Origin: a virus
Lineage: Duplodnaviria; Caudoviricetes
Virus record (IMG/VR): IMGVR_UViG_2939702853_000004
Coordinates: 37,038-101,037 of that record
Strand: one strand, 5' to 3'
DNA: 64,000 bases
Shown here: in pieces, positions 2,452 through 63,526 of the stretch
Layout of the letters: the number at the start of each line of letters is the position of its first letter
Numbering within the stretch: position 1 is the stretch's first letter
Position numbers and translations under genes: made by a program
Notes under the pieces: model-generated
What the model saw: the letters and a program-made list of their open reading frames with translations, nothing else
What the model was told of the DNA's origin: nothing
Database searches by the model: none

Positions 2452-2490
2452 ACTTTTACTCCTTATAAAATAGTAGTTTTACTCATCATT

Positions 2491-2898
2491 TTATTGTTTT
2501 TCCATCCGTGCCTCTGCTTCATCAATAAGCGATTCGAATGAATCTTTAATTGTTTTTGCATATTTCAACCATCCTTCAATTTCCCAAGGTGACATTTCTG
2601 CATTACTATCTCGAAACTTAGTAGACAGACCCTGAATCTCTTGTTGAAGATATAAAAAGCGTTTATAAAATCCCATATCCGTTCTGATTGGATGTTTTCG
2701 TGTATCAGGTTCATGATAAACTGAATTTACGTCAGTCCAGAAAATCTCCCCATTCTCTACTTCCACATACAAACTATCTCCATCTACTTCTTTTACTAAT
2801 GCTTGCAAACCAATATTAAAATCATAATCACTTCTCTCGATTTCAACATATGTATCTTTTAAATAGCAATAATCCTTTGTTTTAATTTTCATTTTCAT
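2491..2898 (-). CDS. hypothetical phage protein
   Basis: ORF with RBS, flanked by boundary sites 2466 and 2919. Confidence 0.7.
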   Translation of the reverse strand: MKMKIKTKDYCYLKDTYVEIERSDYDFNIGLQALVKEVDGDSLYVEVENGEIFWTDVNSVYHEPDTRKHPIRTDMGFYKRFLYLQQEIQGLSTKFRDSNAEMSPWEIEGWLKYAKTIKDSFESLIDEAEARMEKQ

Positions 2899-2942
2899 TC
2901 CCCCTTGTTTTTTAATGACAAAATCTTGTTTTTACCGAACAT

Positions 2943-3500
2943 CTATTTGTTCAATTTCCAGTACCCTCTATTAATCCACTCTTTTACTGCATCAATAGGA
3001 TAATGACGAATAATGAAAGGGTATGAAACTGAATTGACAATATAGTCATTATTAGTTTTGACTGCAAAGAATTTCTCGCCTACTACATTTTCAAAATAAA
3101 ATGAATCTTCTAGTTTAATCTCATTCTTGTCATTATTCATTACTTCATCAAGTTCTTTGAGCAATGAGTGCATTTCTTCATTTTCTCTTGAAATCAAAAA
3201 ATTGATGTCGTTTTGGCTATATTTATTTTTAATCAAATCAATTCTTTCGTTAATTCGACGAATGCGTTTTTCTTTCACGATCTTTTTAAGTACTCGGTTT
3301 TCATGATTTCTCATATCAACTTTCGCTACAATCCATTTCGTAGCTACGCAATCAGACTCTTCCACTTTAACCACTCTTGCTGTCTCAAATCCTCTAGATG
3401 TATCGCAAACTACCCAATCATCTTTTTTAAGTTCAATATCTGTTTTGAATGCATATAGTGCTGGGTTTCCATTGTGTTTCACAAAAGCGATTTTGGTCAT
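2943..3500 (-). CDS. hypothetical phage protein
   Basis: ORF with AAGGAG RBS, flanked by sites 2919 and 3525. Confidence 0.75.
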   Translation of the reverse strand: MTKIAFVKHNGNPALYAFKTDIELKKDDWVVCDTSRGFETARVVKVEESDCVATKWIVAKVDMRNHENRVLKKIVKEKRIRRINERIDLIKNKYSQNDINFLISRENEEMHSLLKELDEVMNNDKNEIKLEDSFYFENVVGEKFFAVKTNNDYIVNSVSYPFIIRHYPIDAVKEWINRGYWKLNK

Positions 3501-3548
3501 ATGTATTATTCTCCTTTATCTATGTAAAAGTATATTTTTATAAAAAAA

Positions 3549-3752
3549 CTATAGTGTCGTACGAAGTTCGTTTAGGGATACCGCTCCACCAAATGTACAC
3601 TTGAGGTTAAACACACCCTTCATGTCGCTCTTCTTAATAATGTAAATATCTGACCCATCGTAGAAAGCTTTGTTGTGTAAATCTTCATCGGTTCTCCCAA
3701 GTTCTAATTGTTTTGAGATCCATTCGCTTATTAGCGCAGAGTTAGACTTCAT
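3549..3752 (-). CDS. hypothetical phage protein
   Basis: ORF with RBS, flanked by sites 3525 and 3773. Confidence 0.65.
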   Translation of the reverse strand: MKSNSALISEWISKQLELGRTDEDLHNKAFYDGSDIYIIKKSDMKGVFNLKCTFGGAVSLNELRTTL

Positions 3753-4027
3753 TTGCTATTCTCCTTTCTTTGTAAAACTCTTCTTTTATGATCTTAGTTA
3801 TATCTCCAAGCAACCAAAGGAATATCAGCATCTACTGACTTAAAATTTTTATTAACGAGTTTATCAATTCCTATACTGTGCTTAAAAGCCAACTCCCTAA
3901 CATATCTAAATGCACTACGTTAGAATATAATGTTGCGGGTCCTTCTGCATTTAGAAATTCAAGGATTGTCTTTGTGGTACTTCCGTTACCAACATTTTGC
4001 ATCTACAATCTCTCCTTTTGTTTATAA

Positions 4028-4417
4028 TTACTTGACTTGTTTAATTTTATATTCACTAATAAAATGCTCTAGGCTGCGCTTTTGATCTTCAGTCAACATC
4101 AGTGAGTAATTTACCAATGTCTTTTCTTTCGGTGAAGGTTTATTAATTTCTTTGTATGTAACGCTTGAAATCTCATCAATCCAATAAAGTCTATCTCCAA
4201 CATCTTGTTTGGCACTTGCTATATCTGCATGAATACTGACACTATAAAATTTGTCTGCTACTTTACAAATAAGTGACGCTTCATCCTCGTAATACCCTTG
4301 TCCACAATCTAAGTAATCTCTACCGATATCTTTAAAGTGCTCTACGATATCATTTTCTTTGGTTAAATATACTTCGTCTTCAATTACACCATATTCATCA
4401 ATTAGATATTGCTCCAT
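4028..4417 (-). CDS. hypothetical phage protein
   Basis: ORF with GAGGAG RBS. Confidence 0.7.
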   Translation of the reverse strand: MEQYLIDEYGVIEDEVYLTKENDIVEHFKDIGRDYLDCGQGYYEDEASLICKVADKFYSVSIHADIASAKQDVGDRLYWIDEISSVTYKEINKPSPKEKTLVNYSLMLTEDQKRSLEHFISEYKIKQVK

Positions 4418-4541
4418 GTTAGTGATCTCCTCTTTGTATATTTATTTTGGTAAAATTCAAATTTTATAGGCTCACATGTGCAAGTTTGAGAGGTTGTTGG
4501 CTATGAACGACCTATGATCAACCTCTACTATGTATTATTAT

Positions 4542-4842: not shown

Positions 4843-4877
4843 CTGATATTTTAATCTGTGTAAAAACTATATTTTAC

Positions 4878-9672: not shown

Positions 9673-9704
9673 TTGATCAAATTGAACTTTTACTCAAAAG
9701 GATC

Positions 9705-10868: not shown

Positions 10869-11245
10869 TCAATATCTCCTCTATGTATTGATTTGTCTTA
10901 CAAATATATAATAACACATTTCATTATTTTTGTATATTAAATTTAGTTTATTTTCACTTCTATATTCAAAGCAACAACTAGTTTCATCAGAAAGATCCAG
11001 TTGTTTAGTATATATCACCTCCTCATATTGATAAAATCAACCTTTGATCAAAAGTTATTCTTTTAGATGAATAACTAGATTTCCATCTTGAATATAGCAC
11101 TGAACCAATCTTTCTTCTGCATTATCAATATCCTCTGTGTTCTTCGCAACCAAATTAATAATGTCAATCAGATCTGCCTTAATCTCAATTCTTCCGTCTT
11201 CTAGTCTTTGGGTATTAGTGTACATATAGACCTTCCCCTTCTTAA

Positions 11246-11503: not shown

Positions 11504-11562
11504 ATAATATAATATTATGATATCTCATAGTCCATCCAAATCAAAGTAAACTTTTATTCAAA

Positions 11563-11823: not shown

Positions 11824-11855
11824 TTTCCTGCCTCCATTATCGTAAAAGAAAGATT

Positions 11856-12359
11856 TTATCCTATATTGAATTGATCCATTAAATAATCTCTATAATTAAC
11901 CCGACCAAAGAATATCAACTGTTCGTGAGCTGCCAACTCATTTTGAATAAGATGTCGAACTAAATAATCTCTATATTTGATTCTTAAATCTGTACTATCA
12001 ATTCCAGAATACCGAGCAACCCTTTCTAATATCTCAAGAATCATTCTTTTATCATCATGAGCTAAATTCAAATATGCTATGCGCTTATTCTCTTTCCTTT
12101 TGTAATACGTTTTTACTAATGGCTCAAGTGCTTTGAAAAGTTCACTGCCTTGAGTTTGCTTTCTTAAAAAGTGGTATGTTCCCAGATTGGCAGTAAACGG
12201 AATTTCGATATTATATATTTCCTTTGCGATTCTACACAATGATCTTGATATTGGGGATAAATCCGACTCTATCTCTTTTACAGCCAGTGCAAGTTCCTCT
12301 CCAAATGCACCATTAGATAATAAAAACAGTACATAGGCTCCTCCTTGAACCTTCTTCAT
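11856..12359 (-). CDS. hypothetical phage protein
   Basis: ORF with RBS; stop codon lies inside site 11843. Confidence 0.7.
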   Translation of the reverse strand: MKKVQGGAYVLFLLSNGAFGEELALAVKEIESDLSPISRSLCRIAKEIYNIEIPFTANLGTYHFLRKQTQGSELFKALEPLVKTYYKRKENKRIAYLNLAHDDKRMILEILERVARYSGIDSTDLRIKYRDYLVRHLIQNELAAHEQLIFFGRVNYRDYLMDQFNIG

Positions 12360-12398
12360 TACAACCCTCCCTCTTGTTAAAAGGAAAATTTGATCGTA

Positions 12399-12944: not shown

Positions 12945-12977
12945 AGTAATACATCTCCTATAAAATATTTGTTTTAC

Positions 12978-13695: not shown

Positions 13696-13726
13696 TATTC
13701 AATCTCCTTTATGTAAAAGTCATATT

Positions 13727-14182
13727 TTATCGCCTTATTAAAGTACCATCTTTTAATTTTTCTCTTACAATTTCAATCGTGCGATTGCAACTGACATGTA
13801 CAGTAGTCAACCTATTTACACACTCTTTAAACAAATCAAGCCTATTGGTATGACAGGATTCGCAATCTGCAACTTCATATGTGCGATCAGGCCTCTTTTC
13901 TGTAGGATTAGGAACTTTAATAAGTTTCCCGTAATTACATTCATGATCATAATCAGTATGATGAATTTGAAATCCGTGTAGAGGATAGGACTTGTTACAC
14001 CAAGAACATCTATTGTCTTCTCTTAATCTTAAATATTCCTTTAGAAATGGATTCTTTGTTGTCTTGCTAACAAAAATCTTCCATGATAACTTTGACCCGT
14101 ATTTGGCTCTTACTTCCTCTATTCCAAGCAGAGGAACAATTTTGTAGTTCATCGCTTCTTGTTTCCTTCCTTGTGAGTCCAC
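13727..14182 (-). CDS. HNH-like Zn-binding protein
   Basis: CSWC...QIHHTDY...CESC...HVSCN. Confidence 0.55.
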   Translation of the reverse strand: MDSQGRKQEAMNYKIVPLLGIEEVRAKYGSKLSWKIFVSKTTKNPFLKEYLRLREDNRCSWCNKSYPLHGFQIHHTDYDHECNYGKLIKVPNPTEKRPDRTYEVADCESCHTNRLDLFKECVNRLTTVHVSCNRTIEIVREKLKDGTLIRR

Positions 14183-14225
14183 TGTTTTATCAACCTTTTA
14201 AAAGAATTGTTTCATCAAATCATTA

Positions 14226-14621: not shown

Positions 14622-14653
14622 TCCTTGTACTCATTCCTCATAAAAGTGTTATT

Positions 14654-15373
14654 TTACATTTTGTAGGTTGTGTGAGTTATAATCTTGCGGATTGCACTAG
14701 GCGTAACATCAAATTTTTCAGCAATTGTTTTGGTGGGCACTCCTTGTTTGTCTAAATTTCTTATTTCTATTATTTCGTCATCATTAAATTTTTTCCCGAA
14801 TTTATATTGCCTTTCGTACCATTTATTTAAATGTGCAAAATCATCGGGTTTAAAATTAAATTCGGGGATGCAATACGAAATTAATTCATATATTTCTCCT
14901 GTTTCATTGTACTCACGGTATTTAGTTAAAGCTCCAATTAATCCGTTTTCCTCCATTACTTTTAAATTAAAATCGGCACAAATTTGTTCTTTGTTCCATT
15001 TCATTTTATCGAAAACAAGCCAGCGGATAGCCTGTTTAATATCTTCTTTTTTTGTCCAAGTGTTATTACCTGCCCGAGTTAGTTCCCAAGGTTTAATATC
15101 CCAGTCAGGATATACATATCTTAAAATATCATAGGGGCTGTCATTAAATAGTTTTTGAGTACCACCGCGTAATTTCCATTTAACAAAAAAATGTTTATTG
15201 AAATTCTGCAATACATCTTGTTTTGTCCAAACCAGTCTCTCTTCAAAAAGATAAAGCAGCAAAGATTTCAAATTTTCTTTCCCATATTCTACTGGATTCC
15301 AAGTGCCATCTGGGAATTTCTTTCTTTTCCCGTCAAGAATATCAACGTATATTGACAATAAAAACACACTCAC
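14654..15373 (-). CDS. DUF4046-like repeat protein with C-terminal HTH
   Basis: KFPDGTW, FNDSPY..L...YP, KPWEL motifs; C-terminal IAEKFDVTPSAI. Confidence 0.6.
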   Translation of the reverse strand: MSVFLLSIYVDILDGKRKKFPDGTWNPVEYGKENLKSLLLYLFEERLVWTKQDVLQNFNKHFFVKWKLRGGTQKLFNDSPYDILRYVYPDWDIKPWELTRAGNNTWTKKEDIKQAIRWLVFDKMKWNKEQICADFNLKVMEENGLIGALTKYREYNETGEIYELISYCIPEFNFKPDDFAHLNKWYERQYKFGKKFNDDEIIEIRNLDKQGVPTKTIAEKFDVTPSAIRKIITHTTYKM

Positions 15374-15757
15374 TTTTATGTTAGCCCTCCTCTTATATAA
15401 AATTATCTTTTTACTTATCGTCTATTATGCAGCAACTCAATTTTATCAATTTTTGATTTTAACTCAACCCAACATTCAGGAACCCAATTGCTAACTTCTA
15501 ATCCTCTGTAAGCGCTAATCTCTTTATTTCCTTTTTTCTTCATTACCACCGAACCCGAACCGATAAATGGACATGTCCAACCTTTGTAGTCACCAATATT
15601 TTTATAGATAAGATCAATCTCTTCTTGTCTCATCTGTGCTCCTCCTTGCTAACTTATGATAACAATATTATACAACATTTCCCTATGTATTTCTCTCTAA
15701 TATCTCACTCTTTATATAATACATTTTATTATTTTTGTATGTTAAAGTCAAGCTGAA

Positions 15758-16478: not shown

Positions 16479-16688
16479 TATGTATTATCCTCTCTTGGTA
16501 AAACGATGCTTTTACTTTAACTTACTTAGGAACAATTATTTCATGATGCAATACAACACAGTCAGCATACTCATTAACTCCTATCATCTCATCTAAAGGA
16601 GTAAAACTATCAAGGCTTCCATTCACACAGTAACCTACACTAGAGTCAGGGTTGCACTTTTAAAGAACTTTGATTAGATCTCTTACTT

Positions 16689-17153: not shown

Positions 17154-17304
17154 ATCATTACATCTCCTCTAATCCATTTATTTAGCAAGCTAATGTTCTC
17201 ACATGCTCAATTATTCTCATTGTAATTCATCGTAAAAGCCCAATTTTATCTTCCCTTAAACATATATAGTCTTACTTTCTTTACGTAATTAGAGGGGTCA
17301 ATCT

Positions 17305-18745: not shown

Positions 18746-19158
18746 TCATTGTGTCTCTAATTTAAAGTCGTATTGTGGCTTTAATGCTTTGCCCACCTTT
18801 CTTGCATCTCTACAACAGTTACCAGTACCACCCTTCGTCCCATCCCAAGCAGCAACAACAATTCGTGATTTATCTACCATGTATTCATTTCTTTTTTGCA
18901 TTTCGCTACATGATACTCGCCAATTGGTACTCCCTCTACACCATACAGTGGCAGCTCGTCTAGATAAACGACTTCATCTGCTGTATCTAGCATCTTCTTA
19001 TACCACAGATGAGTTTCCCTGTCTGTCCACTTTATTGGCTGATTTTTAAATGGTGCAGCAACAATATTGATTATGTGGGGAAGCACTTTTTCTTCATTCC
19101 TTGTACTGTCCAAAAGGCTATCTGGTCAAACCCGATTGCACCACCTGATATAAAATGT
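18746..19158 (-). pseudogene. YspA/DUF1273 SLOG-family (SPbeta yoqJ-like) remnant, 5'-truncated and frameshifted
   Basis: Three frames join as HFISGGAIGFDQIAFW / IVAAPFKNQPIKW...ADEVVY / MQKRNEYMVDKSRIVVAAWDGTKGGTGNC; N-terminus missing. Confidence 0.8.
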
Positions 19159-19698
19159 TCATTTTATCAACTTCATAATATCAACTGATGTGTCTATGTA
19201 TGTTTTGTTGTCATAAATTAAAAAGTCTCTCCATTTATTCGCAAAGCCTTTTGCCTCATTTAAGGTATCAAAACCCTTGATATGAGTAGAATACGTAACT
19301 CCCGATTTTTCATATTCAATGAAGTCTTGATGATATCTGTATTTCTTTCCTGCAAACCAAGGATCAATATAAGTACTTGTTCTATAGTCCCAAGGTTCCT
19401 TATATTGCTCCCACGTCTCAATTGGAAGTGGGACTTCACATTCTGCCCCTGCTACTATGACAGAATACTTTTTTCTGAAATAGTCTGATTTTGCATTTTG
19501 TCTTTTGCTTTCTGCGTGTTTTCTAATTGCTATTTGAAAATAAACAATAGGAGTTCGATACAGGAACTGTCTCCAGTAAGTAAAGTTCTTATAATGCTGC
19601 GGCTTGTCTTTGTTTAAAACCCAATCACTATCCATATGATATGTTAGATCTTTTTGAAGCCACCAAGATTTACTGTCTATAATTTCATTGATATCCAT
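19159..19698 (-). CDS. hypothetical phage protein
   Basis: ORF with GGAGG RBS, flanked by sites 19151 and 19717. Confidence 0.7.
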   Translation of the reverse strand: MDINEIIDSKSWWLQKDLTYHMDSDWVLNKDKPQHYKNFTYWRQFLYRTPIVYFQIAIRKHAESKRQNAKSDYFRKKYSVIVAGAECEVPLPIETWEQYKEPWDYRTSTYIDPWFAGKKYRYHQDFIEYEKSGVTYSTHIKGFDTLNEAKGFANKWRDFLIYDNKTYIDTSVDIMKLIK

Positions 19699-19743
19699 AG
19701 TACCTCCAGCTTTCTATAAAATATGTATTTTAAAGACTTTGCC

Positions 19744-20261: not shown

Positions 20262-20951
20262 TCCCCATATATATCATTCTTAATCAAACACGCATTTTAT
20301 AATGATTGTTTCTTCTGATTTATATATTCTTGATATATATCTTCAAAAGCTTCATCTTCTTGCTTCCACAAAGTTTCTGAGACATCTATTCCATATCCAG
20401 CGTTACATCCTTGTCGAAAAAAATAGTAACACAACTGCCTGAATTCATCGTTTTTTTTATGTAGGGCATGATTTATGGCTCCCACTTATATAATTCGTGG
20501 TTATCTTCTACCAACCTGTAAAAGTAAGAACTGTCATCGCCAGAATATTTTTGGTTAAGGAAATCGACAATTGCTTTTCCATAGTAATCGCTCACATTCT
20601 TACACACTAAAGTATCACTTGCGTTTTCTCTGTTGAAATTATCGCGACTTTAATTATCTTTATTTTTTTGCTCTTCTCCTCTTCCTTATAAAACAGACCT
20701 TTTATCTACATCCACCAGTATCGTCTCCACCAAAATAATCGGGGTAAGCAACTGTTATATCTACTTCTTCGGCAATTCGATAAACTTTAAAGTTTCCAAA
20801 TTTAGCATTCTTCACTTGTTGAACTCGCGTTACAACAGATTCAGCATCAACTATTTCACAAACCTTAGTTACGCCAATATCACCAACAATAATAAATTTC
20901 ATTTTTCATTGCTCTCCAATCTATGTAATCTTAATAAAAGAACTCATTTAG

Positions 20952-21953: not shown

Positions 21954-21995
21954 TCTATCTCATCCTTCTATATGTATTATGGTAAAATCTATGTT

Positions 21996-22340
21996 TTACT
22001 CAGACCATTCAATCTTATTATTTTTATACTTCTGCATCTCGTCATTTAATTCCCATGCCACATCTTTTACGATGCCTTTAATGTTGTATACATTTGTCAT
22101 TCTTTCAATCCTCAGCATTTGATAGTGACACATACTAATCAATTTCTCTAAATGTGCTACTTTATCTTCAAATTTAAAACCATGAGAGAAAAATCGTTTA
22201 TCTTTAGCAATAGTCCATTCACCATCATCTTCATCAAAATAAATTAAGATTTCCGTGTTAGGATGGTATTCATTTTGAAGGATATCCTTCACGATATTGC
22301 TTACCTCTTCCTTGTCACTGGTGCATGTTTGATAGCTCAT
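21996..22340 (-). CDS. hypothetical phage protein
   Basis: ORF with RBS; stop codon inside site 21983. Confidence 0.65.
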   Translation of the reverse strand: MSYQTCTSDKEEVSNIVKDILQNEYHPNTEILIYFDEDDGEWTIAKDKRFFSHGFKFEDKVAHLEKLISMCHYQMLRIERMTNVYNIKGIVKDVAWELNDEMQKYKNNKIEWSE

Positions 22341-22969: not shown

Positions 22970-23006
22970 TAACTCGCCTCACTTTAATCTTTGTAAAAGT
23001 CCTCTT

Positions 23007-23480
23007 TTACTTACTTCTATATGTAATCTCAACTGTCTTTTTGTATTCATCCACTCTTTGCCACTTAAAGTCTTCAACAAACTCTCTTACATTCACATAT
23101 TTATTTTGCTTCAGCATGTCAACAATCTTCTCTTGAACTTCTAGTGTCTTTTCAAACTTATAAAATGCCATCTTAGTCTTACTTCTCTTGAGAAAATAGG
23201 GAGCTGTCCCAGTTAAATAACAGTCCCTCCAGAAATGATCGTCATTTGCATATGTACAAACCAAAAACTCTACGTCACTTTTTTTATTTTGAATCAAATA
23301 CCTTGCAATATCTTCCGCAATCCATCTAACCATTTGCTCTCTGGTCATCTTACTTTTTCTTCTCTCAAACCTTTTGTTGACTTTCTCCTTTGTAAAAAAG
23401 TAGGCCAAAGGAGTCATTAGCCAATACCAAAAACTCTCCAATTTTCTTTCAAAAAATACTTTGATCTGATAAATCTTCAC
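23007..23480 (-). CDS. hypothetical phage protein
   Basis: ORF with RBS; stop codon inside site 22994. Confidence 0.65.
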   Translation of the reverse strand: MKIYQIKVFFERKLESFWYWLMTPLAYFFTKEKVNKRFERRKSKMTREQMVRWIAEDIARYLIQNKKSDVEFLVCTYANDDHFWRDCYLTGTAPYFLKRSKTKMAFYKFEKTLEVQEKIVDMLKQNKYVNVREFVEDFKWQRVDEYKKTVEITYRSK

Positions 23481-41554: not shown

Positions 41555-41655
41555 GTTGTGTATTTTTTACTGTCTATTTTTTGGTTATGGTGTTAGAATA
41601 AAATACAGATCACTCCCTATTTGAAAAGTAGGGAGATTTTTCTATGCCATCAAAA

Positions 41656-41674: not shown

Positions 41675-41725
41675 CAGTTATATTATAAAAGGGGATTATT
41701 TACATGTCAAGAGGTATGGTGAAAT

Positions 41726-41947: not shown

Positions 41948-41957
41948 TTTCCCGCTT
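41934..41957. terminator. bidirectional terminator between XRE and MazF genes
   Basis: AAGCGGGA/TCCCGCTT stem between convergent genes. Confidence 0.6.
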
Positions 41958-41965
41958 CTACTCTT

Positions 41966-42334: not shown

Positions 42335-42489
42335 TATGTAATCACTCCTCGTTAAATATTTCTTCTTATTATTATAATTTTTCATTATTTTTGTTTTTTC
42401 TACGTGTTGTTTCTATATGTACTTATCTCTCACATTCTTATTCTCTTTCTACTTGTAATTATACTAACAAAAATAATTAAAAACAAGAT

Positions 42490-43140: not shown

Positions 43141-43385
43141 CTTAATAAAAATTATATTTTACGTAATAATACGCGAATAATAGCCGACGATCCTCTCAAA
43201 GATACCGGCTATTATTCGTAGTGCCCTTAGTTGAAACTGTAGGTCGCGCTGTGTCTTGTGGCTTGCATAGACACATTATACAACACATAAGTTCATCAAT
43301 CAACAGAAGTATGTGTATGGCCTCTCTAAGCGCCTCTTTTACCTTCTCATCCATTGTTAGTTGCTTCTCCTTACTGTTATGTATT

Positions 43386-44556: not shown

Positions 44557-44919
44557 TTACTCACCAGAGTACCTATTCTCTGTTATAGGATAGTGATATA
44601 TCTCAATATCCTCATCAATAAATCCTCTTCGCTGAGCAGCCAACAGCGTCTCATACATGTTCTTTCGCCCCACAGGGTTGTCAGTGTGTAAATAGATCTT
44701 ATCAGCCCTAAATCCATTCTCACAGAAGTATTTCACCAAATCATATCCATTAGGCAGCTCTTTACCATCTACGTCCTCTCCCAGATCATGGTCTAACGTA
44801 AGAATGCGGACACTTCCAGTTTCAAGGATATGTATTGCTTCATAGTATGTACGAGCGACCACAAAGCCATCTGGACAGTCTCTGAGGTCGTCAACATACA
44901 AATCAATCTTATCAGTCAC
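44557..44919 (-). CDS. cyclic-phosphate-processing receiver-like domain protein
   Basis: LYVDDLR...LDHDLG...GYD...HTDNPVG; GTG start behind AAGGAG. Confidence 0.75.
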   Translation of the reverse strand: MTDKIDLYVDDLRDCPDGFVVARTYYEAIHILETGSVRILTLDHDLGEDVDGKELPNGYDLVKYFCENGFRADKIYLHTDNPVGRKNMYETLLAAQRRGFIDEDIEIYHYPITENRYSGE

Positions 44920-44950
44920 AGCTATACTCCTTCCCTGTAAAACACATCTT

Positions 44951-45196
44951 TTACTTAAACGACAAAGCAAACCCCAATTCTAAAAATGGAACTACCAAAA
45001 TAAACGGAAGTATAAATTGCGGAAAAGCCACAAACAATCCTACTACTGTCGCAATTAAAAATACAGGAAGAATGCAGTATAACACAAGCTCTTTAAAATG
45101 CTGAATTCTGTTTCTTTTGTTTGTTATAACAGACTTCGACAAAGAGTAAACATATTTTAAATAAAATATTTCCTTTTCTTTTGGGAAAATGAACAT
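44951..45196 (-). CDS. small membrane protein
   Basis: Two TM segments; flanked by sites 44938 and 45211. Confidence 0.6.
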   Translation of the reverse strand: MFIFPKEKEIFYLKYVYSLSKSVITNKRNRIQHFKELVLYCILPVFLIATVVGLFVAFPQFILPFILVVPFLELGFALSFK

Positions 45197-45223
45197 TTCC
45201 TTAACTCCTTTAAAATAGCCATT

Positions 45224-45607
45224 TCAATTAGATATGTTATTAACCTTTTTAAAAAGCTCCGCTGCTTCATTGGTATTCACATTATCCATTTCAACATCGA
45301 AAACAAAAGAATTGAATGTGTTATACTGCTCTTGACTGAAGTCACTGTACTTAACGCCTTGGTATTCCAATTTATTTTTGATCAAGCTCAATATAGCATT
45401 AAACCTAATAACACCGTTGATAATTTGACCATCTCTAACAATCATACTTTTAAATTCTTTGTCTTGGTCATTTTGCATGATTCTATCGATGATTTCTTCA
45501 TAGTTACCTGAAATTTTGAACATTGAAGATTCGTGTTCAGGAAAAGTTAAAGACAAGTTTGTGAGGTCTTTAATTTTAAGCTTGAATACTGGCATATTCA
45601 GACACAT
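45224..45607 (-). CDS. hypothetical protein (weak DUF262/ParB-like motif)
   Basis: IINGVIRFNAI resembles a degenerate DGQQR motif. Confidence 0.5.
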   Translation of the reverse strand: MCLNMPVFKLKIKDLTNLSLTFPEHESSMFKISGNYEEIIDRIMQNDQDKEFKSMIVRDGQIINGVIRFNAILSLIKNKLEYQGVKYSDFSQEQYNTFNSFVFDVEMDNVNTNEAAELFKKVNNISN

Positions 45608-46291: not shown

Positions 46292-46525
46292 TTATAATCT
46301 AAGTAAAACAGTCATTTGATTAACTTTTAAATACCCATAAGCCCGATGTTTAAAATAAAAAATCCGACACCGCAGAGCAATAAGTCTTTTGTCATATAGC
46401 TATAATATTTCCCAAAAAAACTAATAAAAAAATGAAATTAGATTAAAAATAAATATAGTCAATCCCACTAAACAAAGTATTAGAAACATCACTTATCTCC
46501 TTTGCTTTATAAAATAGTTATTTGA

Positions 46526-47047: not shown

Positions 47048-47964
47048 AATCCAACACCCCCATTAAAATTATGCATAAAATAAACCTTTTACTTGTTCTT
47101 ATTTTTTTCTTCCTCTTTAATCGCTTTTAACATTGGGCGATTAGATAATATACTAAAATCTGGTTTAACGATAAAATCCTTTTCTTCAACTTTTTTAATA
47201 TCTTTCCCAATCACCAATTCGTTTTTATTTTCATTCACCATTTTTATATGCCTCCTATGAATTAGCTTTGCTTCGCTATAACTCTACAATACTATGTTAC
47301 TCGCTCTGATACAACGTTGGCCTTTTCAATAAATAAATCATAGCACACCTTTAATTAAATATCAATATATTTAATTATTTTTGTTTATTGAAAAAGCGAC
47401 TACTATAAAGTAATCGCCATTAGATATTATGTATGTTTAATATGTCTGTGTTGTTCATACTCCTTCGCTGCTTCACACAATTCAATCCACTCACCATTAT
47501 AATTCCTAACGTACAACTTCTTATCTTTCAATGCTCCTGCTTTATACATACTGATATTCGCTGCCTGTCAAAGAGCTATAGATGTTAACATTATTAGATA
47601 ATCTATTCCAATGATAAAAACGGTCAATCAACACAAAACTCATCGCCTCTTTTGAACGTCCAGCAGTTTCGATCTCTTCAGTAACTTTATCATCTACTAC
47701 GACCATATATGTATCCATATATAACTCCCCTTTTAATTATATTTATTTTATTAGTTAGATAAAGGTACTACTTGCTCTGTTACTTCCGTAATCTCTTCAG
47801 CGTCATGCCAACTGTCAAACTTAACAGCTAAATCAATATCGTGAGTATATAGCTGTCCGCGTTGTTCATCCCAGTCAGATCTAAGGTATTGCTTTGTTTG
47901 TGTATTAATCACCGTATACATGTTCTTTCCCCCATTGTTATCTGAATTATTGTTATTAAAAGAC

Positions 47965-48381
47965 TTATTTTATCTGGACTAATATTGCGTCGTCTACAAT
48001 CTTCTTCAAGTCATAAACAAATGATTCCATTTTTCTTTTATTGAATTGATATAGTTTGTTGCTTTTTAGTAATGGTCTATCTATTTTCAGTATATCTTTT
48101 CTAAGGTAAAGGTAACCATTATTGTCATGCTCCCTGTCATAATATTCATAATAATCAGCCCCCAAACTATTGGCTTCTTTTGGAGTAAAGTTGTCCCAAG
48201 ATTCATTTGAAATGATTTCAACATATTTGTATAATTCAATAAAATCCTTAATCTCAAAGTTATATGTAACACTGCACTTATTGTTCATTTGGTTGTGATT
48301 CATTTCAAATATTACTGCTGATTTTCTGCTTTTAACGATTAGTTCTAAACCATCAATACCTGTAAAGATTTTAATTTTCAT
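47965..48381 (-). CDS. hypothetical phage protein
   Basis: ORF with RBS. Confidence 0.65.
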   Translation of the reverse strand: MKIKIFTGIDGLELIVKSRKSAVIFEMNHNQMNNKCSVTYNFEIKDFIELYKYVEIISNESWDNFTPKEANSLGADYYEYYDREHDNNGYLYLRKDILKIDRPLLKSNKLYQFNKRKMESFVYDLKKIVDDAILVQIK

Positions 48382-48770
48382 AACTAAATAAATTCTCCCC
48401 TCTACAATTGTGATTTTGAATAAAGCACTTCTTCCGCTTAGTTTGTATCACTCATTAATACCTACAACACCCCATCATTGACATTAAATTTATAGATCGC
48501 TGCTTCCCCAAAACTTTCGCTAACCAAACTAGGTAAATTACATTTTTGTTTGTTTCCTTCGACTATTTCTTTCGCCTTAAGTGTTAAGAATGACATTCCC
48601 AACTGAATATATTTTTGATCAAATGTGAAATTAGAATGCATTGCCAATTTTTTAATTTCTTTTATTGCTATCTCTAATGCCTCATCACCATAAAGTAGTT
48701 TTAATGGATTGTTATTTGACATATTGTATTCCTCCGTTTTTGTTCTAATTTAAAATACTTCTTTTACCAC

Positions 48771-49268: not shown

Positions 49269-51453
49269 TACTATCCACTCCTAATAAGTTATAGAAAATG
49301 ATTCACCTTATAAAAGAATCCTTTTACCTAGTCTTTCTTGCTAAGATAATCACACATTCTTCCTCATTAAATCCCTCCAACAATGATTGAATATGGAATC
49401 CTCTATCATCTTCACGTTTCGAATTAACATTGATGAAGATATTCTTTTCAGAGCTAACTCCATAAATTGCTGGACTGTCATCGAAAGTTCTATCTACTGA
49501 ATACTCAACTCCGTCAACCATTACTTTTCTAGTTTCATCTTTCACACTTAACCTCTCCTTATGAAATATCTTTTTATCAATATTACAATGTTTCTTTAAT
49601 CAATTTCTGGTTCAATACCACTCTCTTTGCAATATTCGATGTATGTTCCCTCAAGATCCCTTACATATTTGTTTCCATGTAAGTACACCAGTTGAGTAGG
49701 AGAATAACCATAGTTTCCTTCAATCCATCTTGTAAAAGTCATTTTAATAATCGCTCCATTCTATGTTTTGATGAAATATTCATTTGATCTACTCAGAAAG
49801 CTCTTCAATAGAAATCTCTGCTCAATTATTTCTAATAAGCTCTTTAACTGCATGTTCAGCGATTTTCTTTGTTTTGAAGTGAGTTGCCTCTTCTGCTGTC
49901 TCAACTCTTTTGTTCCAACGATCAAATTTTACATACCAATCTTCTGATTTTATAACAAACATATTTATCCCCCGTTCCTATTTAATTATACGTACCATTC
50001 CAAACTCATCTCTATCAAACACTGGAGTAAAGTTCTCCATTCCACCTGATATTGAACCCCCACCAATATGAAACCATCTTCCGTCCCATTTTTCTATAAA
50101 TCCCCAATGTCTATAATATTCAGATTCTTCGTTGACGATCCTAACTTTCTTTCCGATCATATTTTCAGGCTTCACTTTAAACCAACTCCAACAACATGAG
50201 TCATACATTTATAATCAAATGTCCATTTCTTATCTGTCCACTCTCCACTAGACCCATAGGACGCGTATTCATTGAAGTGATATACATTGCCTGTTATTGA
50301 TTTTTCACAGTGATTGCAGTTATACCCCTTATCATTTGAAATAGCCATCAAAACTAAAGAGTGCTGGTTGAATTTTCTATCCATATAACCAAGATTACAC
50401 ATCAAGTATTTTTCATATTTCTTCATCTTATAGCCACCTCATGAAAGGATCATTTTATTTCCTACTATACATTTCTCTAGATTTTCTAAAAATCTTCCCT
50501 AGTGCTGCTTGACCGAGATTTAATCGTTCACTCATCGCAACAACTTCATCATTAGCTCTTTCAAACTCTTCTCCTCTACGATTGGAGAGATATCTAGCCA
50601 CATCGTAATATAGGTCTGTCTTTTTAATTTCTTTGTTGATATACTGCTTCTCAAGTTCTTTAAGCTTTTCCATATTCTCAACTCCCCATAAAAATATAGT
50701 TTTACATAATTTGTTTTGAACCAATACTCATGACAACCATTACGCCATCAGCTTCGCATAAAGCGGCAAACTTAGTCATTTCTATTTTATCATTGAACGA
50801 AAAGATATTCGCCTCTAATTTACCTAATACCTTCTCAAACACTCTTACCTTATACATGTAATCACCTCATATGTATTGTTTTTTCTATATATTTATTATA
50901 TATCATTTAATTATTTTTGTATATAGGTTTTGCTTAATTTCTACTACTATTTTTATTGGGGAGCAAACAAAAAGACCGCCTAAGCGATCTTGTCAAATTA
51001 ATCTTTTATTGGCTTTTTATTTCAGATTCTTGCTTTTTCATAAACTCAATATAACACTTAAAACATCTACCTCTCAGCCGCGCCTTATTCTTACAGAATT
51101 TCATCTTACATTGATTTGGGTTATTTCTCATCTGTTCCGTCGATTTATATGGCATAAATCCAACTGGTATATGAAACAAGGGAAGAATTTTTAACATATC
51201 CATATAGCATTTAAGACAATATTCAGCCTCTTCGTAATCAGATACAATGTTTCCTGAACAATATTCATTCTTACACTTATGTATAGCCATGCTGTTCACC
51301 TCTAAGTTGTTTATCTATGTAGAATGCACATAATTTGTCACCTGCAACACAAATCATTCCTCGCGACAAATCACTTTATCTTATTAGCTCATAGGTTTCC
51401 CTAACTGTAAAGAGCAATTATTCATGTAACGAATCAACATTTTACTGGGTGTT

Positions 51454-52281: not shown

Positions 52282-52574
52282 TTATATATAACTCCTCTTA
52301 GGTTTAAGTCAGGCAATCTCACCCTGCTAACTCCCTCCCTGTAATACTTATTTTGTTTACACATCTTTGCGTTTAGACTTAACATGCTCTCTCATCATCT
52401 TACGCATCCTATTCATTCCGACACTTTTTGTTATTTCTGTGCTAGTTGCATATTGATTGAACTCATCGTACTTGTCAGGCTCTAGATACGCTACTGTAGG
52501 CCTAATTGCCTTCACTTTAGTTTTACTCAATTTACTCCTCCGTTCTATGTATCACTGATAAAAGTCCGTTTTTA

Positions 52575-55120: not shown

Positions 55121-55650
55121 CGTTATGCTTCACCTCTTCTTTGGAGTAAAATTCAACATTTATTAAAATTATCATAGACCTGCTGACCATTATCGTCATA
55201 GTAAGTATCTCTGAACCTATAAATATCTTCTGTAGAAACTTCTACATAGTCTTCTGGATAATAGGCGTATAGAAATCGTTCAAAGTAAACTTCATCGTTA
55301 TTTTTGTACAGTTTTAAAACCTTAGTTAGCTTATTTGTTTTTGGATCAAAGTCATATAATCCAGAATTCCACTTTTTATCTACCATAATCATAATTATTC
55401 ACCTCGTAAAATAACTGTTTCATTCGAATGCATTTACTGTTTTGTTTATGCATTTTACGAACAGATTGTTTCCTTCTCTTTTATTAACAAAATAGCTTTC
55501 ATTTTTAAATACAAAACAATCACTTTCGTAAATTTGTATGTTACTCTTTACAGCAAATTCTTCGTCGTCGAGGATAAACACTTTATAGTTGGTCATAATT
55601 GTTCTCCTTTTAATTTTCTATGTAAATTCCTGCTTTTATTCCAATAATCA

Positions 55651-56067: not shown

Positions 56068-56573
56068 AGCAACCTGCTAACTTGATCTTCCTTACATAGA
56101 CCCGTTACAAGCAACTTGCCATCTGGCGTTATCTCGACAGTTTTGAGTTTTGTTATATACATTGTTTTTCCTTCGTAGTCAATCAAATCCCCATTTGATA
56201 CTTTTTCGTTTATGGTTATTTTAAAATTGACTGATTTATTATCGCTCATCTACTCTTCATCTCCCTATCAAATACTGTTTTTATTTGCTTATAATATTTA
56301 CTTTTGCGTTTCAACTACCATTCTCTACCTTTTTTTACTGCCTCTAAATTTTCTTCTGCATACTTAACGTATTCTTCTTTTCTAGGATCGTTTCCATAAG
56401 TGCTAATTACTTTTTCCAATTGAAGCTCATAATAACTGATCAACTTTTCTCTCGTTTTCATAATTTTATTCTCTCCTTTTTAGTAAATGGACTTTGTATA
56501 AAATCGTTGTTTGATCATCTATTTACAATACAATGTGCCTAGTTACAATATGTTGTTTCTCTTTGTTAAGTAA

Positions 56574-58334: not shown

Positions 58335-58859
58335 GTACTCACCTCTTTATTAAAATTTATTTTAATCACCTTCTGATATAATACTATCACACCATTATTT
58401 TATTGTCAACATTTAATTATATTTATATGTCAAAATTAATTAGCATGTTTCTACAACAAAAAAACTAGGTATATACGCCCTAGTTTAGTGTGATAAAAGT
58501 AACATTTTATAGAAAATATAGATAAATTCTTTATTGGTTGAGTGCGACTGTAAAAAATGAGAATAGTAAAATAGTAGTTATGTATTATGTATTAAATCTA
58601 TCTATTTGCAATAAAGTTGATTTATATAGTTAATGGTTGTGAAATTTGGGGTGAAATGTAATTAATAATATTTGAAGTTATTGTGTAATCTCTTTTAAGA
58701 GATTAGTTTTTTTGCTTAAAAGTCCTCTGAAGCAATCCATAAAATCTAATATTATGTGATAAAAAGGAATTATTTGTAGAAAGATGGATTGAAAATATTG
58801 ACAAATGGGAAAAAGCCCTATATTGTTGATGGTAATTAAATATAGGGAGGCTTTAGTCA

Positions 58860-60611: not shown

Positions 60612-60986
60612 TTAGAATTCTAGATATTTATCATCAACATTAACTCCAAATGTTAAATCATATGGAACATCAACAAATAAATATCCATCCTTAATTTGAT
60701 AGTCATGCTCAAGCACGTATTTAACTGGTATTGCGCTTTCTGACTCCCACAGTTCCGCATCTTTTGCGAAAACAGCAGATAGAACAGAATTGGCTATACC
60801 CATTAAACTGTGACCATTGTCGCTTACATATACATAAAATGGCTGTAACTCACTAGGCAACTTTGGATAAGTTTTTGATTTATCTACCATATGTTTTATT
60901 GCTTGAATACTTTTTCTCACGTCATCACCCCAAATATTAAAGTAAAAGACTGGTTTTATACACTTTTGATAAGTACAGTTCTTCAA
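60612..60986 (-). CDS. hypothetical phage protein
   Basis: ORF coupled to upstream gene. Confidence 0.6.
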   Translation of the reverse strand: MKNCTYQKCIKPVFYFNIWGDDVRKSIQAIKHMVDKSKTYPKLPSELQPFYVYVSDNGHSLMGIANSVLSAVFAKDAELWESESAIPVKYVLEHDYQIKDGYLFVDVPYDLTFGVNVDDKYLEF

Positions 60987-61420
60987 AGAGATACTTTAAT
61001 TGTTGCTTCCTTTATCCCCTGAATTATCTTCTCAAGATGTTTAATAGCAATAACATCGACTCTCAATTCAATCCATTCTTTAATTGAAACAGGCGGCTTT
61101 GAATTAGTATGATACTCTTCCTCAAGCATATCTTTAACAATTGACACATAGTCAATAGTAATATTACCGTAAGAGCCTTTTGGGTTATTTCCAATGGTTA
61201 AATAGTATCCTGCTGACTCCAAATCTTCTATCATATCAAAACCATCTTTGACTAATTCAAATGAATGCTCGTCTTCTTTGTAATAAACTATAATCTCCTG
61301 ATCTTCATCTACAGAAACTCTGGGATGTTTAATAAACTGTGTATAAGTATCAGTGTCATCAAGTTGCTTTTCTTCAACTTGCTCCATTGTAATATACATC
61401 AATGTTTTCATTTTCTTCAC
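60983..61420 (-). CDS. hypothetical phage protein
   Basis: ORF with RBS. Confidence 0.65.
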   Translation of the reverse strand: MKKMKTLMYITMEQVEEKQLDDTDTYTQFIKHPRVSVDEDQEIIVYYKEDEHSFELVKDGFDMIEDLESAGYYLTIGNNPKGSYGNITIDYVSIVKDMLEEEYHTNSKPPVSIKEWIELRVDVIAIKHLEKIIQGIKEATIKVSL

Positions 61421-62449
61421 TCTCTCCGTTATGTGTTTGAAATCTCAATTTTAAGCGCTTAATTAATTTTACCCTAATGTTATCCATTCCATAATACCAT
61501 GTAGATTGATACTATGGGAATGCACCATCATCTCAAGACGTATCATGCTGTATTCATGTGCTAAGATCTGATTAAATTCATCAATGTGCGATTGAGTTAT
61601 CACCATGTTAGTCATGTATAATCCTCTTTCTTGTGATTGTCTATTCATTAAAATCTTCCATCATTGATTATCATGAGAAAATCGCTTTTAGGAATCTGTT
61701 TAATATAGTGTAAGTTTTGTGAGTTTGGTCTAGTATAAAGCACACTCGTATGACTTCCGACAGTCTTAGCACTGGAAATTATGTATTTCTTTCTGTCCTC
61801 TACTATTATGTCTCCAGCGACTAAAAATTGTGCCATTACCTTGCTTTTCATTGTGTAAGCACCTCCTACCTTTGTACCGCTTAATCTAATTTTATCATGA
61901 AAAGCACAGTAATCAAATAGGCATTTCATCTTATCTAGACAATAGCATAACGTTGTCTTTGCCATACACGTCTTTAAGGCGCGCATTCAATAATACTATT
62001 TGCTCATACTCTTTGTACTTACCTTCGTCAATAACTATCTTTTGAACATCATCGACAACTTTATATTTTACGAAAGGCTGACCAAATGCCTTATTATAGA
62101 CTAGTAATCTAATCACTTTCATCCTCCTATTTATAAAAATGCATTTTTATGAATTAAAATATCACTTAAATCGAGTATTATAATTTTGAATTTGTATATT
62201 CATACATTTTCATCTATGTAAAACAAGAATTTTATCGTGTTATTATTTCAATTTTAGAAATAAAAAACTCAACAGACATCCCAGTTCTTTTTGATTCTCC
62301 AAAACAATTAATTGCAATGTGATTAGCCTTGTTCCACTCATAACCTTTATCTGCAATCATTTTGGTTGCTTTTTCCATATTTTTTAATGTTAAATACTTC
62401 ATATCTATTCATCTCCTTATGAAATCACTCTTTTATGTACCTTTACAGG

Positions 62450-62767
62450 TTAGAATGTCAATTGCAATTTTTGTCTTTTAATAAACGCTTTTACTTCTGA
62501 AATGCCCCATACTTCTTTTTGATAATCTTTTATATTTTGACTTAAATTATTGTCTACGTAGTTAAATACAACTATAACTCCATCCATAATTAATCTGTCA
62601 AGATATGAGCCAACTTTACTAATTGCAATTGAAAACAAATCTCCTTGAGCATCTTCAATAAAGATAGCTTCACCTATGTTCAAACCTTTAACAAAACACA
62701 ACTTTAACTCTTTACTCTTAAGCTCGGATATAATGTTTTTAAAATCTACTGTAATAGTATTTTTCAT
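62450..62767 (-). CDS. hypothetical phage protein
   Basis: ORF with GGAGG RBS, flanked by sites 62420 and 62793. Confidence 0.7.
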   Translation of the reverse strand: MKNTITVDFKNIISELKSKELKLCFVKGLNIGEAIFIEDAQGDLFSIAISKVGSYLDRLIMDGVIVVFNYVDNNLSQNIKDYQKEVWGISEVKAFIKRQKLQLTF

Positions 62768-62920
62768 TGTTTTATTCCTCCAATTTTTTGAATAAAATGA
62801 GTATTTTAAGTTGTCTACAGTGCAGCGTTACTCGTTACAGTACATTGTTACAGTTGCAACCTAGCCAGATGATTCTGGCTAACGCTCAGAGCCTAATGCG
62901 ATTTATAGTCGCTCTGACGA

Positions 62921-63175
62921 CTAAATATTTTGATAGGGATATTCGATTATTTTGTTATTAACAATATCGGATATAAAAGTGAAAGCCATTTTAGCAGCAT
63001 TTGTTTTTTCTCCCAATGGAGAAGCTGGACAAGATGCAAGGCGTAATAATTTTTCAATACGTTTGTTGCATATTTTTAATTCTTTTACATCTGCAACCAT
63101 CATTTCAATAGCTTCAATAATTGAGCAGTCTCTCAAAAACTCATTCCATATTATTTCAACTTTCTCTTTATTCAT
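62921..63175 (-). CDS. hypothetical protein (DUF2786-like motif)
   Basis: RIEKLLRLA...GE..AA..A. Confidence 0.55.
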   Translation of the reverse strand: MNKEKVEIIWNEFLRDCSIIEAIEMMVADVKELKICNKRIEKLLRLASCPASPLGEKTNAAKMAFTFISDIVNNKIIEYPYQNI

Positions 63176-63211
63176 TTAAAGTCGCCTCCTATGTATTTAC
63201 CTTATGAATTT

Positions 63212-63258
63212 ATTATAGCACACGTTTATTATTATATCAAGTATTTAATTATATTTGT
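63212..63258 (-). promoter_or_regulatory. sigmaA promoter (TTGATA-17-TATAAT) with upstream ACAAATATAATTAAA motif
   Basis: Direct sequence match. Confidence 0.7.
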
Positions 63259-63295
63259 TTATTGATTTACTATCAATTAAAGTAAAATATCAGTT

Positions 63296-63526
63296 TTATA
63301 ACCCTTTTGACTGAACATATGAATAATACTCTTCAAACGATTTACATCCTCCACGCTGCTTATAGTCCATGTACTGCTCCAGTACAATTTGATTGAATTG
63401 CTTTGAAGTTAAATCGGCAGGATTTATACTTCCCTGTAAATAATTCCAATATAGCCGCGACACATTAGAAGGCTTTTTCTTCGGTTTGTTCTTTCTCATG
63501 TAATCACCAACTTCCCTTTCGTACAT
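63296..63526 (-). CDS. hypothetical phage protein
   Basis: ORF; stop codon inside site 63283. Confidence 0.6.
   Translation of the reverse strand: MYEREVGDYMRKNKPKKKPSNVSRLYWNYLQGSINPADLTSKQFNQIVLEQYMDYKQRGGCKSFEEYYSYVQSKGL

Follow-up and report, generated by a model that had tools for sequence, protein, structure and literature searches.

Short inverted-repeat sites with conserved, position-specific centres at gene junctions of SPbeta-like phages

Results

A recurrent site at the gene junctions of an SPbeta-like early region

The stretch of DNA analysed here (hereafter the window) is a 64-kb segment of IMG/VR virus record IMGVR_UViG_2939702853_000004, corresponding to G000:C10:91449-155448 in a genome of 5.1 Mb, and the element under study is a short inverted repeat, RTAAAA-N6-TTTTAY, that recurs at its gene junctions. 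GC skew and the map of open reading frames (ORFs) place nearly all window genes on the minus strand. Homologues of the SPbeta proteins MrpR (YopR) and YopQ are encoded together with a Sak4-like protein, a replicative helicase, a ligase and an Ant-type anti-repressor, and this gene content identifies the window as the early arm of an SPbeta-like prophage. A megablast search with 12 kb of the window against the phage collection gave no match. At the prophage edge (C10, ~57 kb) lies a large serine recombinase, as SprA does in SPbeta, and integration is covered by this enzyme. The genes that recur in the argument below are:

31542-32714, minus strand: Sak4/YorG-like AAA_24 protein (Pfam AAA_24, 2e-12); SPbeta yorG is annotated as a Sak4-like single-stranded DNA annealing protein
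37055-38053, minus strand: MrpR/YopR homologue (Pfam MrpR_N_CB, 4.8e-24; MrpR_C_cat, 1e-11)
38040-39380, minus strand: YopQ-like (DndB family) gene, upstream of the MrpR-like gene (Pfam DndB, 1.6e-6)

The core TAAAA-N6-TTTTA occurs 35 times in the window, against 1.20 copies expected and a maximum of 4 in dinucleotide shuffles; an earlier reading of this DNA from its letters only (the sequence-only reading) had counted 34 perfect copies, one fewer than this recount, which bears out its observation. Its claim of an invariant 6-bp spacing also holds, and an unbiased scan of the window ranked this motif first among all 5-mer palindromes with gaps of 0-12 (z=26.8). When RTAAAA-N6-TTTTAY was scored over its 12 specified positions, R/Y flanks included, 31 sites matched at 12/12 positions (0.2 expected) and 29 at 11/12 (5.4 expected), while the 10/12 class was no better than chance (55 versus 57). 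Because the first two classes exceed expectation and the two-mismatch class stands at chance, we estimate that the window holds ~55 genuine sites. The near-perfect coordinates listed previously turned out to be real copies carrying one or two arm mismatches, and the site-free gaps noted with them are likewise real (4.9-9.6 kb, 29.9-34.4 kb and 35-43 kb). Three blocks, those of replication, of the yorF/yorG-like genes and of lysogeny, make up the big slots that have no internal site, a slot being the interval between consecutive sites. Genome-wide, 62 of the 86 perfect copies in G000 fall within the low-GC prophage, which takes up the end of C10 and part of C11.

The general form of the site is R-T[A/G/c]AAA, a position-specific 6-bp centre and TTT[T/C/g]A-Y, and T[A/G/c]AAA-N6-TTT[T/C/g]A is also the form found in related prophages of the genus. 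No conservation was found beyond positions -1 and +16, and the flanking sequence further out is random; the conserved arms are thus only 5-6 bp each and the whole site 16-18 bp.

Read in gene orientation, a junction consists of a stop codon, the site and a Shine-Dalgarno (SD) sequence 1-20 nt further on, which agrees with the location between the end of one ORF and the next ribosome-binding site given by the sequence-only reading, and with its description of the sites as borders of one or two accessory genes. In ~24 of 60 sites the upstream stop codon is the motif's own first TAA (or TGA in TGAAA variants), and some sites (43146, 58494) have no downstream gene. Sites so placed mark precisely the points at which an SD with its ORF, the unit of translation, can be exchanged within a long operon. 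A promoter reading of the sites was rejected, because an SD only 1-20 nt after the site leaves no room for a leader; a promoter such as that of the PeSL elements of T4-type phages, discussed below, is therefore absent.

The sites of the window are listed below; "G081 partner" denotes a site with an identical centre that is collinear in the genome G081.

2466-2481: perfect-core site (core scan)
3525-3540: perfect-core site (core scan)
3773-3788: perfect-core site (core scan)
4451-4466: perfect-core site (core scan)
4861-4876: perfect-core site (core scan)
9677-9692: general-form site (G081 partner)
11032-11047: general-form site (general-form scan)
11541-11556: general-form site (G081 partner)
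11843-11858: perfect site, TAA is the upstream stop (G081 partner, both flanks unrelated)
12378-12393: general-form site (G081 partner)
12961-12976: perfect site (same centre in G021, homology only in the downstream flank)
13714-13729: perfect site, TAA is the upstream stop (G081 partner)
14199-14214: general-form site (general-form scan)
14641-14656: perfect site, TAA is the upstream stop (G081 partner)
15398-15413: perfect site (core scan)
16499-16514: perfect site (G081 partner)
17233-17248: perfect site (G081 partner)
19151-19166: perfect site (G081 partner)
19717-19732: perfect site (G081 partner)
20284-20299: general-form site (G081 partner)
20689-20704: perfect site (core scan)
21983-21998: perfect site (G081 partner)
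22994-23009: perfect site (G081 partner)
23449-23464: general-form match, possibly chance (no partner found)
25082-25097: perfect site (G081 partner)
26626-26641: perfect site (G081 partner)
27641-27656: TGAAA-variant site, TGA is the upstream stop (G081 partner)
28408-28423: general-form site (G081 partner)
29518-29533: general-form site (G021 homology blocks stop here)
29900-29915: perfect site (G081 partner)
34405-34420: perfect site (G081 partner)
43146-43161: site between convergent genes, with a terminator-like hairpin after it (core scan; G081 partner)
44938-44953: perfect site, centre GATGTG in gene orientation (upstream of the cREC gene in 7 genomes, upstream flanks unrelated)
45211-45226: general-form site (general-form scan)
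46304-46319: general-form site (G081 partner)
46510-46525: general-form site (general-form scan)
47076-47091: perfect site (G081 partner)
47957-47972: perfect site (G081 partner)
48751-48766: perfect site (G081 partner)
49311-49326: perfect site (G081 partner)
49772-49787: general-form site (G081 partner)
50442-50457: general-form site (G081 partner)
50689-50704: perfect site (G081 partner)
50993-51008: general-form site (G081 partner)
52559-52574: perfect site (G081 partner)
55407-55422: TGAAA-variant site, TGA is the upstream stop (G081 partner)
56183-56198: general-form match, possibly chance (general-form scan)
56268-56283: general-form site (G081 partner)
56499-56514: general-form site (G081 partner)
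58494-58509: perfect site (core scan)
60943-60958: perfect site (core scan)
61236-61251: general-form match, possibly chance (general-form scan)
61438-61453: general-form site (general-form scan)
61913-61928: general-form site (general-form scan)
62134-62149: perfect site (core scan)
62219-62234: perfect site (G081 partner)
62420-62435: general-form site (general-form scan)
62793-62808: perfect site (G081 partner)
63283-63298: perfect site (G081 partner)

Centres are unique within a genome and ordered between genomes

The centres were compared over 451 sites from 14 genomes, in all inter-genome pairs and with 120-nt flanks. Where both flanks were homologous the centre was identical in 10 of 13 pairs, and where only one flank was homologous it was identical in 59 of 68; with neither flank homologous, identity dropped to 450 of 177,845 pairs (0.25%), ~116 being expected from composition. 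Sorted into 51 junction families, the centre was kept in all of the ~14 families with homology upstream only and in ~22 of the 25 with homology downstream only. Crossovers outside the centre, between sites with differing centres, would leave at most about half of the one-flank pairs with a shared centre. Between orthologous sites, arm position 2 differs in ~30%, and centres differ at no more than ~4.5% of positions. The centre is the most conserved part of the site, and the earlier statement that the spacer varies freely must be corrected: it differs between positions and is strongly conserved at each given position.

Identical centres show complete collinearity in these pairs of phages: 37/37 for G000-G081, 24/24 for G000-G002, 17/17 for G000-G007, 20/20 for G000-G070, 29/29 for G002-G070 and 26/26 for SPbeta-phi3T, with chains only 6-10 long after centre shuffling. 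Within each of 9 genomes no centre was repeated in either orientation (0 versus 6.9 expected from the empirical cross-family rate; P=0.001), and palindromic centres are rarer than chance (4 versus 11.9 expected). Uniqueness within a genome and a fixed order between phages argue against recombination among the sites of one genome and for exchange at equivalent positions. SPbeta and the phage studied here have no centre, or barcode, in common (one chance-level pair), and thus the sets of centres are lineage-specific.

One gene illustrates the behaviour of a single slot. The cREC_REC-domain gene at 44557-44970 (minus strand) is common to ~20 genomes of the genus at 80-89% identity. At its upstream site, homology begins exactly at the outer edge in 7 of 9 loci, with the centre GATGTG kept and the sequence upstream unrelated; four genomes retain its downstream site, which has the centre GGCATG and after which at least 3 unrelated genes follow. 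The gene was found together with both flanking sites in at least 7 unrelated contexts. This cREC_REC (cyclic-phosphate processing receiver) gene is the most widely shared cassette, and it may be an anti-defence gene.

Unrelated cargo between shared sites

Between G000 and G081, consecutive shared centres delimit 36 slots, of which 14 hold unrelated DNA of different length and without protein similarity, 9 are partly homologous, 7 are homologous at the nucleotide level and 6 are similar at the protein level only. Slots with unrelated cargo sometimes neighbour each other. Such unrelated genes between the same pairs of sites fit the delimiting of cassettes proposed from the sequence. At 24 window junctions the 16-bp site is the sole shared sequence, both 45-nt flanks being near-random (0.33-0.35 ungapped identity). 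SPbeta and phi3T, which carry a different barcode, give the same pattern, with both flanks homologous at 12 of their 26 shared sites, one flank at 9 and none at 5.

Three phi3Ts-SPbeta hybrids (Hyb1-3) arose in a laboratory evolution experiment (10.1101/2020.05.06.055103). In Hyb2 and Hyb3, the long tracts of identity between SPbeta and phi3Ts terminate at sites: the 1404-bp tract around mtbP, for example, has sites at both borders, and a 4.9-kb identical tract terminates at TAAAAGAATACTTTTA.

The arms behave as half-sites in double-stranded DNA

The R/Y flanks of the sites show no co-variation: A stands at -1 in 16 sites, 10 of which would pair as A·C. Mixed forms outnumber matched ones in G002, with 17 copies of TGAAA..TTTTA and 14 of TAAAA..TTTCA, the latter of which would give an A·C mismatch if the arms paired. 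Identical substitutions occur on both arms as mirror images (TCAAA/TTTGA, TGAAA/TTTCA), and T at arm position 2 never exceeds background in related prophages of the same genus. The mean RNA minimum free energy of the sites is -1.15 kcal/mol, so that the hairpin is negligible, and Rfam 15 at gathering score gave no family at the sites, its sole match in the window being the Pistol ribozyme at 62855-62922. An RNA hairpin or processing signal was rejected on these three grounds: the arm variants are non-compensatory, which excludes a hairpin, the folding energy is negligible and Rfam is blank at the sites. Recognition by a protein on DNA had been favoured already in the sequence-only reading because half-site changes are not compensatory, and the frequent A·C combinations bear this out. 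Judged by these patterns, the site carries what is the signature of a putative two-fold symmetric protein reading double-stranded DNA. The preferred arm letter varies by genome, being A in G000, G081 and SPbeta but G in the pair G002 and G007; this pattern points to a reader that co-evolves with the sites and is encoded by the phage.

The motif in other phages and its relation to SPBRE

SPbeta itself carries 34 copies of TAAAA-N6-TTTTA against 2.35 expected (z=20.7), placed alike and overlapping the stop codons of yoqG, yoqS, yoqY, yorT, mtbP, yorZ, yosC, yosF and yosR. Measured against a reversed-pattern control, the motif is also enriched in E3 (51 versus 15), Thrax2 (30 versus 15) and phi127 (41 versus 8). 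Sundance shows no enrichment (7 versus 7) though it has an MrpR-like gene, and neither does a Staphylococcus SPbeta-like phage (23 versus 18). The searchable literature yielded no published description of the motif or of site-bounded mosaicism in SPbeta-like phages; a CASP16 paper in which SPbeta is mentioned deals with the serine integrase SprA and has no bearing on the sites. In the G007 prophage, a second over-represented palindrome, ATTAT-N6-ATAAT (10 versus 0.72 expected), lies beside TGAAA-N6-TTTCA sites.

The master repressor of SPbeta, MrpR, binds the element SPBRE at ten promoters, and chromatin affinity precipitation sequencing (ChAP-seq) of MrpR in SPbeta gave 10 peaks, at SPBRE and not at TAAAA-N6-TTTTA sites (PMC10516654). 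Derived from the ten published target regions, SPBRE reads ACAAATACAAAWAATATGTATA, an inverted repeat ATACA-N7-TGTAT, of which the 64-kb window contains no copy. The sites were rejected as MrpR operators because SPbeta holds SPBRE and TAAAA-N6-TTTTA as separate motifs; moreover, the motif is common to phages whose MrpR proteins share only 29% identity. The motif is a family-wide trait of SPbeta-like phages, separate from SPBRE. The MrpR-like protein of the window belongs to the tyrosine-recombinase fold family, lacks the catalytic Tyr and is nearer to PDB 9rd5/9rgl ('Core-binding domain-containing protein', E 9.5e-29) than to SPbeta MrpR 8a0a (1.3e-22); it is not a likely binder of the sites. 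At yopV, yopM and yonX of SPbeta, SPBRE directly adjoins the SD, 28-34 nt upstream of the start codon, and the action of SPBRE may not be restricted to promoters.

A candidate recombinase outside the window

No intact recombinase lies in the window, as the sequence-only reading had noted, and YopP-like and YomM-like genes are present elsewhere in the same prophage. The YopP-like protein is encoded at G000:C11:133552-134613 and is 27% identical to SPbeta YopP (E 1e-26); the YomM-like protein is encoded at C11 109696-110742. Aligned with host Xer proteins, the YopP-like proteins of G000, G081, G070 and G066 have the full R-K-HxxR-H-Y set, and the catalytic set of the YomM-like protein is complete, with Trp at the His-III position. 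The YopP/YomM homologues of the prophage and its relatives keep the canonical HxxR.

A YopP-like gene is present in 5 of 5 motif-bearing relatives (45-56% identity) and in the motif-enriched E3 and Thrax2; it was not found in the unenriched Sundance and is broken by a stop in the unenriched Staphylococcus phage, a correlation that rests on few, related genomes. The case of phi127 fits less cleanly, this phage being motif-enriched, yet with a stop in its YopP-like match. The YomM-like gene tracks the motif less well, since it is intact in the unenriched Staphylococcus phage and was not found in G007. yopP is a conserved gene that is transcribed in the lysogen and has no assigned function (PMC10516654), and a PDB sequence search with the YopP-like protein gave no match. 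From its catalytic residues and distribution, we infer that the YopP-like tyrosine recombinase would be the best enzyme candidate.

Other features of the window

Several further features lie in the operons and blocks between the sites. A full-length Pistol self-cleaving ribozyme (62855-62922, minus strand; 65.3 bits versus a gathering score of 34.5) sits within the early operon, in the slot between sites 62793 and 63283. An N6/N4 DNA methyltransferase gene (26647-27438, minus strand; Pfam, 1.8e-48) forms a single cassette flanked by two sites. Directly downstream of the MrpR-like gene lies an agr-like module (35190-36956, minus strand), consisting of AgrB (35744-36301; Pfam, 4.8e-20), an adjoining 221-residue membrane protein (36291-36956) and a weak LytTR match (35190-35558); this is possibly a peptide-signalling system in the place held by the arbitrium system in SPbeta. 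Inside the lysogeny block, a MazF-like toxin (41966-42385; PHROG, 2.3e-29) is encoded along with an antitoxin/HTH protein (40885-41319), the two spanning 40885-42385 on the minus strand. In the case of SPbeta, the host MazEF system is acted on by the phage's own YopM.

Discussion

The sites described here combine common symmetric arms with unique, asymmetric and ordered centres, and unrelated genes lie between them. This combination is best explained if the sites are position-matched exchange joints, and we regard it as an even bet that they act as position-addressed joints for the exchange of accessory genes between related SPbeta-like phages. In such a model, a phage-encoded dimeric protein would read the shared arms at all sites, and only sites with the same centre would be compatible partners. 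The sites of one genome would not recombine with each other; instead, slot n of one genome would be replaced in register by slot n of another, for example when an incoming phage meets a resident prophage. The candidate enzyme would be the conserved YopP-like tyrosine recombinase, and in an alternative version short-homology annealing over the 16-18 bp of identity could proceed via the Sak4-like protein. We infer that the conservation of the centres reflects the matching of partners in recombination. Of the cassette idea in the sequence-only reading, the delimiting of accessory genes thus stands, and integron-like insertion, excision and shuffling find no support, since centres are unique and their order is fixed.

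Several observations weigh against exchange at the sites. Of the 42 ends of homology blocks between the window and G081 that fall at junctions, 20 (48%) coincide with a site, where 38% of junctions bear sites (P=0.13), and for SPbeta versus phi3T the values are ~40% and ~28%, again not significant. In both phage pairs breakpoints are enriched at sites over all nucleotides, with no significant preference over site-less junctions. No clear co-segregation of arm position 2 with the adjoining flank was seen, so that the crossover point cannot be placed inside the site. In the laboratory hybrids, the crossovers that could be resolved fall within site-free stretches of 29-87 bp common to both phages, and the remaining ones within identical tracts that measure 1.4, 4.9 and 18 kb and abut sites at three of their ends; no crossover in Hyb1-3 could be assigned to a site. 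With crossovers in site-less or long identical tracts, ordinary homologous recombination suffices for these hybrids. The arms, at 5-6 bp, are far below the 11-13 bp arms of known tyrosine-recombinase sites, and SPbeta YopP (78691-79767) and YomM (40301-41302) have Lys at the Arg-II position (HxxK), despite the 34 sites of that phage. Finally, a benefit in evolvability is second-order selection.

The anatomy of the site, with inverted arms around a short asymmetric centre, points to a tyrosine recombinase as its putative reader. The fullest form of the exchange model would be a natural recombinase-mediated cassette-exchange system, in which the YopP-like enzyme would bind the arms and exchange strands only across identical centres. 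Its ~40-60 orthogonal, ordered joints would allow a resident prophage and a related incoming phage to trade single accessory genes in register, leaving the genome unscrambled. We hold this form to be doubtful, though a serious contender. A somewhat doubtful alternative, which we rate as rather unlikely, is that a dimeric protein of phage or host docks at the sites in a primarily regulatory or architectural role, for instance to organise the genome or to silence the early operons of the lysogen by a roadblock; gene exchange would then follow only from the sites being all the conserved sequence that divergent phages share. The dyad symmetry, with half-sites that vary independently, the strict intergenic position beside the SD and a genome-specific arm preference that suggests a co-evolving reader are all in its favour, as are breakpoints that are not specific to site-bearing junctions and laboratory hybrids that do without sites; that palindromes with short arms serve as operators in this phage group is clear from MrpR of SPbeta (PMC10516654). 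However, a reader of the arms leaves ~40 centres unexplained, which are conserved above the arms, unique, palindrome-poor and collinear despite replaced neighbours, and the MrpR ChAP-seq peaks fall at SPBRE and not at the 34 SPbeta sites (PMC10516654).

The other accounts have much lower probabilities. An RNA-level signal in the polycistronic early mRNA, whether for processing, for translational control as an operator or for re-initiation, would suit the constant position between stop and SD, the many first arms that include the stop codon and the A/U-rich sequence. We nevertheless consider it improbable, as nothing in single-stranded RNA calls for a two-fold symmetry in which both arms carry equivalent variants. 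Compensatory changes are lacking, A·C is common, the hairpin is negligible and no Rfam family lies at the sites; those at 43146 and 58494 have no downstream gene, and centres are conserved independently of both neighbouring genes. Integron-like excision, insertion and shuffling of single-gene cassettes by a recombinase among the sites of one genome draws on the inverted arms around a 6-bp centre, the one or two promoterless genes per interval and the intact tyrosine recombinases encoded in the prophage. It is highly improbable given that all centres in a genome differ, which would make the sites mutually incompatible under overlap matching, and that the fixed centre order between phages speaks against shuffling. 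No direct centre repeats surround a gene, as insertion would leave, and sites of 16-18 bp have neither a folded attC-like structure nor an attI/IntI platform. Least credible of all, and hardly to be entertained, is that the sites are operators of the window's MrpR/YopR-like master repressor, the equivalent of SPBRE in this phage. An MrpR homologue is indeed encoded in the window, and SPBRE is likewise a short-arm inverted repeat that abuts the SD at yopV, yopM and yonX. Against this, both motifs exist separately in SPbeta, with ChAP-seq peaks at SPBRE only (PMC10516654); the same motif occurs despite MrpR proteins of 29% identity, and the MrpR-like gene of Sundance goes without motif enrichment.

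Position-matched exchange has its closest parallel in the heterospecific lox and FRT sites of Cre and FLP, which have common inverted arms for one recombinase and a short asymmetric centre that sets compatibility. Sites with different centres in one molecule do not react with one another, and the segment between two of them is exchanged in register. The window sites share the layout of inverted arms and asymmetric centre, the recombinase here being a candidate only. They differ in that the lox/FRT sets are engineered and comprise two or three variants with 13-bp arms around an 8-bp spacer, whereas a natural genome here carries ~60 different centres in conserved order between arms of 5-6 bp. 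PMC3036822 is a general review of such systems.

The pdif/dif modules of Acinetobacter plasmids are 28-bp sites (11-6-11) with distinct XerC and XerD arms that are used by host Xer and move between plasmids (PMC6449649). They resemble the window sites in being many recombinase-type sites with a 6-bp centre around accessory genes in varied contexts. The window sites, however, lack the 11-bp XerC/XerD arms and have symmetric arms of 5-6 bp with random flanks beyond; each centre is unique and has its place in a fixed order, the apparent exchange resembles allelic replacement more than transposition, and the phage itself encodes the candidate enzyme. The PeSL elements of T4-type phages are units of a promoter and a stem-loop terminator that recombine by homology and give mini-circles (PMC2839356). 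Like them, the window sites are repeated intergenic elements among small non-essential genes, with insertions, deletions and replacements between related phages, but they have no promoter or stable stem, and their unique centres should block recombination between different copies.

Integron attC sites, which are 57-141 bp long, recombine as a folded single strand, and their cassettes are captured at one attI in variable order. The likeness is limited to promoterless genes between recombination-type sites; the window sites have neither the size nor the folding of attC, the recombinase genes are elsewhere in the prophage and the centre order is fixed. Compared with a generic tyrosine-recombinase core, the inverted arms around a 6-8 bp overlap are present and the arms are unusually short. 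SPBRE shares with the window sites the phage family, a short A/T-rich inverted repeat, a spacer of 6-7 bp and an intergenic position that sometimes touches the SD, but it has ~10 copies, a conserved spacer and a location in promoter regions, and is a separate motif in SPbeta. The stoperators of cluster A mycobacteriophages, bound by the L5 repressor, are asymmetric 13-bp sites of one consensus that are oriented with transcription. They too number dozens and lie in small intergenic prophage gaps, often touching stop or start codons, but have no variable, position-specific centre.

The origin of phage mosaics whose breakpoints fall at gene boundaries has long been in question, and is commonly attributed either to homologous recombination at conserved linkers or to illegitimate recombination at random places, the products of which are then sifted by selection. 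If true, the exchange model would add a natural counterpart of heterospecific lox/FRT cassette exchange and could give a role to YopP and YomM, the conserved tyrosine recombinases of SPbeta-like phages. Since the motif is present in SPbeta, a tractable prophage of Bacillus subtilis 168, the idea is directly testable, and ~60 orthogonal minimal sites would be useful in genome engineering. Should the exchange model prove wrong, these phages would still have conserved centres, specific to their positions, that need an explanation beyond known operators and RNA signals.

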